3,593 nucleotides of DNA from a virus. Lineage: Duplodnaviria; Heunggongvirae; Uroviricota; Caudoviricetes. The translations under genes and the position numbers were made by a program. Below, piece after piece: positions 2,834-3,593 of this stretch; position 1 is the first letter of the stretch, and every line of letters begins with the position of its first letter. The stretch covers positions 1-3,593 of the IMG/VR virus record IMGVR_UViG_2737471853_000013. The stretch is one strand, 5' to 3'. Below the pieces are notes generated by a model. It was not told the origin of the DNA, made no database searches, and worked only from the letters and a program-made list of their open reading frames with translations.

Positions 2834-3115
2834 ATGAGCATTCATGATTTGTGTGAAGATCAAGAGCAATGGGCTATGCAGACCCTTATGGGATCAGGAG
2901 TTCTTGCAAGGTGCAGAATCCATAACGATGTAATTTTAGACAGCGGAAATGATGCTTCTTCTGCTTATAAATTAGGAACTTACCTATATCAAAAAGATAA
3001 TAGCTGCAACTTATTCAATACTCTTACTGAAGCCCGCGACGCAATAAAGGATGCATATGAATCGTATTGTGGGATCGATGATTGCCCACAATGCTCAAAA
3101 TACATTGACGATTAA
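2834..3115 (+). CDS. ea8.5: Ea8.5-like small Cys/His-rich protein (93 aa), low-GC moron gene
   Basis: ATG 2834 is preceded by AGAGGTG (2822..2828) at 5 nt; the GTG at 2816 used by the track is less likely. Size (93 aa) and position between the Ea22 region and xis match lambda ea8.5 as I recall. Cys/His pattern (C..CRIH...C...YCGIDDCPQC) fits a zinc-binding fold. Hand-counted G+C is about 39%. Confidence 0.6.
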   Translation: MSIHDLCEDQEQWAMQTLMGSGVLARCRIHNDVILDSGNDASSAYKLGTYLYQKDNSCNLFNTLTEARDAIKDAYESYCGIDDCPQCSKYIDD

Positions 3116-3135
3116 TAATATGAACAAGTAACTAT

Positions 3136-3160
3136 CCTCGCACTCGCGGGGATTTCTTTT
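3136..3160 (+). terminator. Intrinsic terminator: 6-bp stem (CCTCGC/GCGGGG, one G-U pair), ACTC tetraloop, then ATTTCTTTT
   Basis: Seen in sequence 20 nt after the Ea8.5-like stop: stem 3136..3141 pairs with 3146..3151, followed by a U-rich tract. Confidence 0.5.
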
Positions 3161-3167
3161 ATCTGAA

Positions 3168-3190
3168 CTCGCTACGGCGGGTTTTGTTTT
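3168..3190 (+). terminator. Second hairpin plus U-tract element (CTCGC/GCGGG stem, then TTTTGTTTT); tandem terminator or structured leader
   Basis: Seen in sequence: 3168..3172 pairs with 3177..3181 (one G-U pair), followed by TTTTGTTTT, immediately upstream of the GGAGA ribosome-binding site of the 55-aa sORF. Confidence 0.35.
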
Positions 3191-3203
3191 ATGGAGATGA
3201 TAA

Positions 3204-3371
3204 ATGCACTTCCGAGTCACAGGTGAATGGAATGGAGAACCATTCAACAGAGTTATCGAAGCAGAGGACATCAACGACTGCTATAACCACTGGATGATAT
3301 GGGCGCAGATAGCGCATGCAGACGTAACCAATATTCGAATTGAAGAACTGAAAGAACACCAAGCCGCCTGA
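3204..3371 (+). CDS. Small hypothetical protein, 55 aa (MHFRVTGEWNGEPFNRVIEAEDINDCYNHWMIWAQIAHADVTNIRIEELKEHQAA)
   Basis: Not in the ORF track (below the size cut-off); found by reading. ATG 3204 has GGAGA (3193..3197) 6 nt upstream. The TGA stop lies in the loop of a strong terminator hairpin. Lambda has a similarly sized unnamed ORF between xis and ea8.5 (my recall, uncertain). Confidence 0.5.
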   Translation: MHFRVTGEWNGEPFNRVIEAEDINDCYNHWMIWAQIAHADVTNIRIEELKEHQAA

Positions 3372-3386
3372 TGGCGGTTTTTTATT
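3362..3386 (+). terminator. Intrinsic terminator: 7-bp stem (AGCCGCC/GGCGGTT), TGAT loop, then a T-run
   Basis: Seen in sequence: 3362..3368 pairs with 3373..3379, loop 3369..3372 contains the sORF stop codon, followed by T-rich 3378..3387. Confidence 0.6.
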
Positions 3387-3401
3387 TCCTGGAGAATTAA
3401 G

Positions 3402-3593
3402 ATGACCGATACCAGCCTGATTCCTGAGAAAGAAGTGATGAACAAGCTCGGTGTTTCATCACGTCAGACAATCTGGAACTATACCAAACGGCACGGATTT
3501 CCGAAGCCAGTCAGAACCCACCCCAAATCATACCTTCGTGAGGCTGTTGAAGGGTGGATTCTTAACGGTGGCGTTAATCAGAAATGCTCCTGA
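3402..3593 (+). CDS. xis: AlpA-family excisionase / phage transcriptional regulator (Xis-like), 63 aa
   Basis: ATG 3402 has GGAGA (3391..3395) 6 nt upstream. The translation has the AlpA/Xis winged-helix pattern (LGVSSRQTIWNYTKRHGFPKPV...REAVEGWI) and the expected position at the int-proximal end of the operon. It is not lambda-type Xis. The ORF is complete, with TGA at the window end. Confidence 0.85.
   Translation: MTDTSLIPEKEVMNKLGVSSRQTIWNYTKRHGFPKPVRTHPKSYLREAVEGWILNGGVNQKCS

Follow-up and report, generated by a model that had tools for sequence, protein, structure and literature searches.

The leftward operon of phage lambda is read by N-modified RNA polymerase. In the literature on its 'exo-xis' region, the final ORF listed is orf55, a gene that sits between ea8.5 and xis and whose coding sequence (lambdap35, 29118–29285) adjoins that of xis (28860–29078). 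One paper refers to earlier work implicating orf73, ea22, ea8.5 and orf55 in blocking the initiation of host replication, and a secondary source, which does not name orf55, states that the predicted exo-xis ORFs were confirmed as expressed; in a CRISPRi essentiality map of lambda, lambdap35, which is without a PAM site, was left out. Neither orf55 nor a terminator at the locus appears in the original GenBank record of lambda (J02459). In RefSeq the product carries the label hypothetical protein in lambda, HK140 and E. coli prophages, and the HK140 copy (HK140_031) is annotated as 'similar to lambdap35'. Bloch et al. 2014 (PLoS One, Table 4) used ARNold to predict a terminator, t5-lambda, and in HK140 t5 carries the annotation rho-independent terminator; both sources offer prediction or annotation only, and pass without comment over the stop codon that lies in the hairpin loop.

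Most termination sites in E. coli are located 25–75 nt past a stop codon, and terminators overlapping the upstream gene are a recognised minority arrangement. The effect of a nearby ribosome has been measured at lambda tR2, where a stop codon 5 bp before the terminator lowered termination from about 90% to under 10%, removal of translation restored termination, and hairpin folding needed about 10–15 nt of free RNA from the ribosomal A site (Li et al. 2016, NAR, PMC4824070).

We analysed a 3,593-nt stretch of viral DNA (the window), which its ORF list and sequence identify as the exo-to-xis stretch of a lambdoid phage. The exo gene (1–681) is followed by three small ORFs at positions matching lambda orf60a, orf63 and orf61 (the orf60a-like ORF spans 672–860), a TraR/DksA zinc-finger ORF (1415–1636), an Ead/Ea22-like ORF (1633–2049), a dATP/dGTP pyrophosphohydrolase-DUF551 ORF (2051–2719), an Ea8.5-like ORF (2834–3115), the orf55 homologue (3204–3371, plus strand, 55 aa, with an ATG start and a TGA stop) and, in the position of the excisionase, an AlpA-type HTH gene of 63 aa (3402–3593, plus strand). 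An AT-rich 110-nt spacer (2720–2833) lies ahead of the Ea8.5-like gene, and the genes upstream of it are tightly packed or overlapping. A consensus scan found no promoter in this spacer, and sigma-70 promoter-like sites number only two in the whole window, at 1370 and 581 (minus strand). Since the window contains neither an N gene nor a nut site, antitermination is assumed from relatives.

The first-pass annotation of this DNA had described a 55-codon ORF with a GGAGA ribosome-binding site 6 nt upstream, which the sequence bears out: the ORF runs from 3204 to 3371, and the Shine-Dalgarno GGAGA (3193–3197, plus strand) stands six bases (TGATAA) ahead of the ATG. It had also called the ORF unlisted, which is true of the ORF track it worked from and not of the databases, where the gene is an annotated CDS in lambda RefSeq, HK140 and RefSeq E. 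coli. The statement that the protein has no recognisable family does not stand. The protein has a full-length match to phrog_676 (residues 1–55 on profile positions 1–55, E 2e-39, 134.5 bits) and is 96% identical to lambda lambdap35 (NP_597778), from which it differs by two amino acids, D22N and N28D. With no Pfam or NCBIfam model available, orf55 looked family-less: the sole Pfam hit of the protein is a sub-threshold one to DUF3303 (E 0.14), the NCBIfam search returned nothing, and PADLOC returned nothing for Orf55.

The window and lambda genes are both 55 aa in length, share the ribosome-binding site, the hairpins t3 and t4 upstream and the terminator over the stop codon, and are each the last ORF ahead of xis. 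Also, the Shine-Dalgarno sequence is conserved as GGAGAT in lambda and in Klebsiella homologues. Judged by its sequence, the window ORF is orthologous to lambda orf55, with which the 'exo-xis' accessory block of the leftward early operon ends. Both the gene and the t5 terminator are already in databases and literature, and the observation is correct but ordinary. What had seemed an unlisted gene without a family is lambda orf55, carried by prophages in a large proportion of complete E. coli genomes; a 494-nt query (3100–3593) covering orf55 and the xis-like gene had matches in 2,698 of the 5,426 genomes.

The hairpin over the orf55 stop codon

The end of orf55 lies within the predicted intrinsic terminator t5 (plus strand), in which a stem (3361–3368 paired with 3373–3380) encloses a TGAT loop (3369–3372) and runs into a T-tract of six Ts (3378–3383). 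The orf55 stop codon TGA (3369–3371) makes up the first three bases of the loop, and the last two alanine codons (GCC GCC) together with the stop form the 5′ arm and loop. The arms CCGCC/GGCGG contribute five G-C pairs; one G.U and two A-U pairs lengthen the stem, with these outer pairs drawing on the first Ts of the tail. This agrees with the earlier description of a TGA in the TGAT loop of a hairpin followed by a T-run; of the '7-bp GC-rich' stem in that description, the hairpin holds, and the stem is really five G-C pairs plus weaker outer pairs. RNA folding of t5 gave -13.0 kcal/mol versus -5.2 +/- 2.2 for shuffled sequences (z = -3.6; 0 of 200 shuffles as stable), and terminator-like sites in the window number 9 versus 3.4 +/- 2.2 expected. 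In t5-lambda and the HK140 terminator the hairpin is identical to that of the window (AAGCCGCC-TGAT-GGCGGTTTTTT), whereas the sequence beyond the T-tract differs. A tRNA fragment after t5 in some prophages (GGTTCGATTCC) was considered and is unsupported by ARAGORN.

Four further terminator-like hairpins stand upstream on the plus strand. The strongest of them, t1 (742–764), has nine pairs and lies inside the orf60a-like ORF; we presume that it may be lambda tL3. Searching the literature for tL3/tL4, named lambda terminators, in the vicinity of xis gave nothing relevant. Next come t2 (1337–1355), t3 (3134–3153; eight pairs, five of them G-C, then TTCTTTTAT; -12.1 kcal/mol, z -4.6), which is placed 19 nt past the stop of the Ea8.5-like gene, and t4 (3165–3184; eight pairs, four of them G-C, then TGTTTTAT; -11.0 kcal/mol, z -3.8). 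The five plus-strand hairpins of the window are the t1 to t5 predicted for lambda (Bloch et al. 2014). As t3 and t4 stand in tandem in the interval from the Ea8.5-like gene to orf55, the latter has three such predicted terminators around it within 250 nt.

The family comprises two subfamilies. Genes of subfamily 1 are always the last ahead of the excision/integration module, and the modules that follow contain lambda Xis, an Exc-type Xis (Klebsiella L104), a DUF1233 excisionase (L105) or, in the window, the AlpA-type gene; other subfamily 1 loci have further small ORFs in front of other xis genes. Subfamily 2, with ~50% identity, was found in Enterobacter, Leclercia, Atlantibacter, Erwinia and one metagenomic bin (L106–L113, L023). 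It carries the motif FRCTG...RVIEAED..DARDHW, which retains the family motif F-x-RVIEAE-D...DHW, and is sited early in the leftward operon, with the repressor/N region on one side and kilR-gam-recT on the other. There too, a hairpin is present upstream, and a terminator lies over the stop codon.

We compared 114 sequences (113 fetched loci and the window), in which the stop codon has 36 distinct contexts; of the hairpin, 12 distinct variants were folded. A hairpin and T-run over the stop codon were seen in 12 of 12 variants, subfamily 2 included, and the T-run directly after the hairpin always has 5–7 Ts. The layout spans loop sizes of 3–11 nt and the stops TGA, TAA and TAG. Klebsiella L104 has a CACTGA loop, and hairpins of subfamily 2 read AGCCGC-CTAACCA-GCGGCT (TAA), GGCTGCC-TGAC-GGTGGCC (TGA) and GGTCGC-CTAG-CGCGGCC (TAG), with the stop codon of L110 (subfamily 2) spanning the loop and the 3′ arm. 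Some variants of the lambda-type group keep the pairing, with a compensatory G-C to U-A change in L093 (GCCTCC...GGAGG) that is also an Ala to Ser change, and with the G.U pair of t5 turned into A-U in L040 and into G-C in L058. In others, the stem is weaker: L048 and L049, also lambda-type, have lost one stem pair, with an A.G mismatch in L049, and the L105 hairpin reaches only -6 kcal/mol. In every homologue examined, including those of the ~50%-identical subfamily, the ORF ends within a terminator-hairpin loop or at it, an observation that is new here.

The C-terminal tails of Orf55 vary (HQAA, HQTA, HKNA, EAAH, TEAA, QVA and others). Because the terminator-over-stop layout is conserved through the family, the tail would be shaped by RNA structure, and the last six residues of the protein appear to be dictated by the RNA stem. 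As far as sequence can tell, t5 is a conserved terminator-type structure, at which we infer that transcription terminates in vivo. Its core stem is short, with five G-C pairs, and is weakened in some natural variants, which counts against a functional terminator.

The end of orf55 is within a ribosome footprint of t5: its stop is in the loop, and its final two to three sense codons form the 5′ arm. The distance from A site to hairpin is negative, and a closely following ribosome should suppress t5; the analogy with tR2 suggests that t5 is weakened by the ribosome at the orf55 stop codon. The first-pass annotation had held that a stop codon within a terminator couples translation termination to 3′-end formation, and by this analogy the tR2 data (PMC4824070) would point the opposite way. 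A ribosome finishing orf55 would cover the 5′ arm of t5, and termination would be efficient on untranslated or loosely coupled transcripts only, and leaky on tightly coupled ones. No competing antiterminator pairing around t5 stood out in the folds of the 12 variants.

The overlap of stop codon and hairpin may instead have no regulatory meaning, with t5 a redundant element of an inherited compact cassette that antiterminated polymerase ignores; we put the chances of this a little below even. Four other predicted terminators (t1–t4) stand upstream in the same operon, the overlap of a terminator with the upstream gene belongs to a known minority class, and in phages 2851 and Sf101 the hairpin ahead of xis has no stop codon in its loop. 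Arms of the GCC GCC type are common to the family, consistent with common descent, and conservation of the stop in the loop could reflect descent of one compact cassette and not selection for ribosome sensitivity. However, the layout is kept at about 50% identity with other stems, other loops, other stops and another genome position, and such persistence is more than simple inheritance of one sequence predicts.

A second alternative, that the hairpin is mainly a 3′-end stabiliser or processing barrier for the orf55 message, seems unlikely to us. It would fit the stability of the tetraloop hairpin and its place at the extreme end of the ORF, and there is a precedent in mccA, where a terminator hairpin and a bound ribosome give an exceptionally stable short transcript; but the 5–7 Ts that always come directly after the hairpin are a signature of release, and no orf55-specific promoter was found, so that there would be no short message worth stabilising.

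Mosaic joints and the border with the excision module

In 96 of 105 alignments, homology between the window and other loci stops at 3382–3395, in or just past the T-tract; no fewer than five unrelated modules are found downstream of this joint. The left-hand ends of homology are grouped ahead of t3, in the interval separating it from t4, past t4 and at the ATG. In other phages the homologous blocks begin at 3124–3129, just ahead of t3, and mosaic joints at 3149–3157 and 3189–3190 flank t4. The cassette 3129–3386, comprising the orf55 region and t5, occurs beside many different neighbours.

Phages 2851 and Sf101, in which orf55 is absent or reduced to about 50 nt, are informative about the hairpin itself. 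Phage 2851 has kept t3 and t4 and has a 114-aa ORF in place of orf55, and Sf101 retains, as a separate remnant, the terminal ~50 nt of orf55 together with t5. Both have AGCCGC-TATA-TGGCGGTTT(C/A)TTTTT ahead of the AlpA-type xis and leader that they share with the window (L114 1060–1085; L115 945–972). This hairpin (AGCCGC-TATA-TGGCGG and a T-run) has the arms of t5, unrelated sequence upstream and no stop in its loop, and joints at hairpins of this type lie in the loop or right after the T-tract. Since the hairpin is shared ahead of xis in phages without orf55, a terminator before the AlpA-type xis is conserved independently of orf55. The t5 hairpin thus behaves as a shared linker of ~20 nt, common to modules that are otherwise unrelated, at which lambdoid modules have probably recombined.

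Additionally, many database proteins (P0048, P0068, P0071, P0091 and P0093 among them) have only the C-terminal half of Orf55, fused to unrelated N-termini. Such fusions indicate recombination joints inside orf55, near 3270–3325, which spare the 3′ end and the terminator.

The gene downstream of t5 is a xis-like AlpA-type HTH gene, so the earlier placing of the ORF directly upstream of an excisionase is upheld. It matches phrog_66, 'excisionase and transcriptional regulator' (E 1.9e-8), and Phage_AlpA at E 0.003, below the Pfam cut-off, and its product is named 'AlpA family regulatory protein' in RefSeq. The gene begins 18 nt past the T-tract, and its leader is conserved with HK140, phage 2851 and Sf101. 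Its Shine-Dalgarno GGAGA (3390–3394, plus strand) begins 7 nt past the T-tract, which leaves no room for a promoter, and no sigma-70-like promoter was found in orf55 or in the gap to xis. In lambda, by comparison, the T-tract abuts CTTGCGTGTAATTGC, with a TTGC-N6-TTGC box upstream of the xis ATG that we take to be the cII-binding box of promoter pI. The integrase gene following the AlpA-type xis lies on the other strand and converges on xis, the two overlapping by 20 nt at their 3′ ends (HK140; L001 1946–3124), and the minus strand of the window at 3574–3593 encodes ...RSISD* of Int. As int is convergent, early transcripts reading through t5 and xis would be antisense to int.

We think it likely that t5, at the end of this orthologue of orf55, acts as a border terminator that gates xis and is weakened by the ribosome, with its hairpin serving as a linker between modules. 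In this explanation, t5 would halt unmodified RNA polymerase where the accessory block meets the excision/integration module. Without a promoter of its own, the xis-like gene would be expressed only by read-through of t5, from transcripts that in lambdoid phages would be the antiterminated early ones, and t5 would be the final barrier in a series that makes Xis depend on antitermination and keeps it silent in the lysogen. The suggestion in the first-pass annotation that the terminator could gate xis is hence plausible, given that there is no room for a promoter and that the hairpin precedes xis also where orf55 is missing, although t5 would not be a dedicated switch, as four other predicted terminators come before it in an operon that is N-antiterminated in lambda.

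A stronger version, in which t5 is a selected translation-sensing valve that moves with the orf55 family, Xis requires both antitermination and orf55 translation, antisense transcription of int is limited and the hairpin doubles as a recombination linker, strikes us as decidedly improbable. What is added here is small: the terminator-over-stop layout is family-wide, a t5-type hairpin stands ahead of the AlpA-type xis with or without orf55, and the hairpin marks the exact joints of mosaic modules. If it is true that t5 sets Xis levels or that Orf55 binds RNA polymerase, this would bear on prophage excision in Shiga-toxin phages.

Fold and selection of the Orf55 protein

The AlphaFold2 model of Orf55 has a strand-strand-helix-strand topology with a pLDDT of 90; residues 50–55 (pLDDT 54) are disordered and are the most variable part of the protein. 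Orf55 is acidic, with a pI of 4.9 (4.3 in subfamily 2). A Foldseek search of the PDB returned candidates that had already been published: T7 Gp2 in its holoenzyme complex ranked first (4lk0_M, E 0.053; TM 0.59–0.62, 23% identity over 48 columns), ahead of YkzG, the RNA polymerase epsilon subunit, and then of phage p56. Similarly, the top 35 viral structural matches include three 'RNA polymerase inhibitor' proteins of the Gp2 family. No Foldseek match of Orf55 reached E 0.001, a profile comparison with an approximate Gp2 sequence gave 3.5% probability, and a PDB sequence search with the Orf55 family profile returned noise only (E about 0.7). In these models, the resemblance to Gp2 is reproducible and not significant.

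At the positions equivalent to the critical arginines of Gp2, numbered R56/R58, Orf55 has N43 and R45, and R45 is replaced by E in subfamily 2, the arginine not being conserved family-wide. In Gp2 this pair is on strand 3 (PMC8614690). Orf55 has been proposed as a Gp2-like binder of host RNA polymerase (Donaldson et al. 2021), and such a protein would engage the beta' jaw and sigma70 region 1.1 and damp early host transcription. The ranking of Gp2 first and YkzG second among PDB structures, the three Gp2-family viral matches and the small size and acidity common to both proteins would speak for this, and from the modelling we still regard it as doubtful. Our best guess is that Orf55 acts early, as a small protein with a host protein as its binding partner; RNA polymerase is one candidate for that partner, though an unlikely one.

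That orf55 is a real gene is evident from its divergence. It differs from lambda by 5 synonymous and 2 non-synonymous changes, and from Klebsiella prophage homologues (76% protein identity) with a pS of 0.73–0.88, near saturation of the synonymous sites, and a pN of 0.16–0.17. The differences from the Klebsiella homologues fall on the three codon positions as 11/4/29 and 12/4/33, and dN/dS is 0.07–0.1. The ORF is intact in 110 of 114 sequences (113 loci and the window), the remaining four being partial contigs or homologues with a GTG start. The first-pass annotation had named codon-level conservation and that of the reading frame as checks: divergence is biased towards third positions, with a dN/dS of about 0.07–0.1, as in a real gene, and the frame is intact in all complete loci. 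orf55 is under strong purifying selection, which is also new here.

A chance frame, with the real feature non-coding or on the opposite strand, is exceedingly improbable: minus-strand ORFs do occur at 3189–3362 and 3281–3445, and one antisense frame is open in the window and the Klebsiella homologues, but substitutions follow plus-strand codon positions (11/4/29) with pN far under pS, the motif F-x-RVIEAE-D..DHW is kept at 50% identity, the structure prediction is confident, the PHROG match is full-length and a match in Rfam is absent. The codon-position differences and the excess of pS over pN mark the minus-strand ORFs over orf55 as a shadow of the sense frame, and no relevant Rfam family was found in the window.

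Lambda-identical 'homologues' of Orf55 (L004–L022) are recorded under Shewanella, Pseudomonas, Kitasatospora, Oceanobacillus, Chromatium, Bradyrhizobium and others, and several of these contigs are about 48.4–48.5 kb long and of low coverage. These matches look like lambda DNA contamination or spike-in in public assemblies. A scan of genome contigs likewise returned mostly lambda contamination and few diverse homologues.

Comparison with known systems

Lambdoid 'morons' are cassettes of promoter, gene and terminator. Like them, orf55 is small and accessory, carries a terminator, varies in presence between close relatives and has sharp joints; whereas morons carry their own promoter, orf55 is preceded by terminators and embedded in an early operon. 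A moron-type orf55 with its own sigma-70 promoter was considered and rejected, as no promoter-like site is present at 3100–3203. At the protein level, T7 Gp2, YkzG and phi29 p56 are like Orf55 in size, topology and acidic character, but sequence homology to Orf55 is not detectable and the fold scores are not significant.

In mccA (Zukher et al. 2014 NAR) and leader-peptide attenuators, translation of a short ORF bears on an adjacent intrinsic terminator, as we propose for orf55. In mccA, however, the bound ribosome relieves an attenuating structure upstream and in this way induces termination, and the product of orf55, unlike a leader peptide, is a conserved protein with a predicted fold. The tR2 reporter system has its stop codon within the ribosome footprint of the hairpin, and t5 would share this steric logic; that system is engineered, with the stop 5 bp upstream, whereas the window has its stop inside the loop of a natural predicted terminator. 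Beyond t5, the window continues into an AlpA-type xis and a convergent integrase, in contrast to the pI-xis-int arrangement of lambda.
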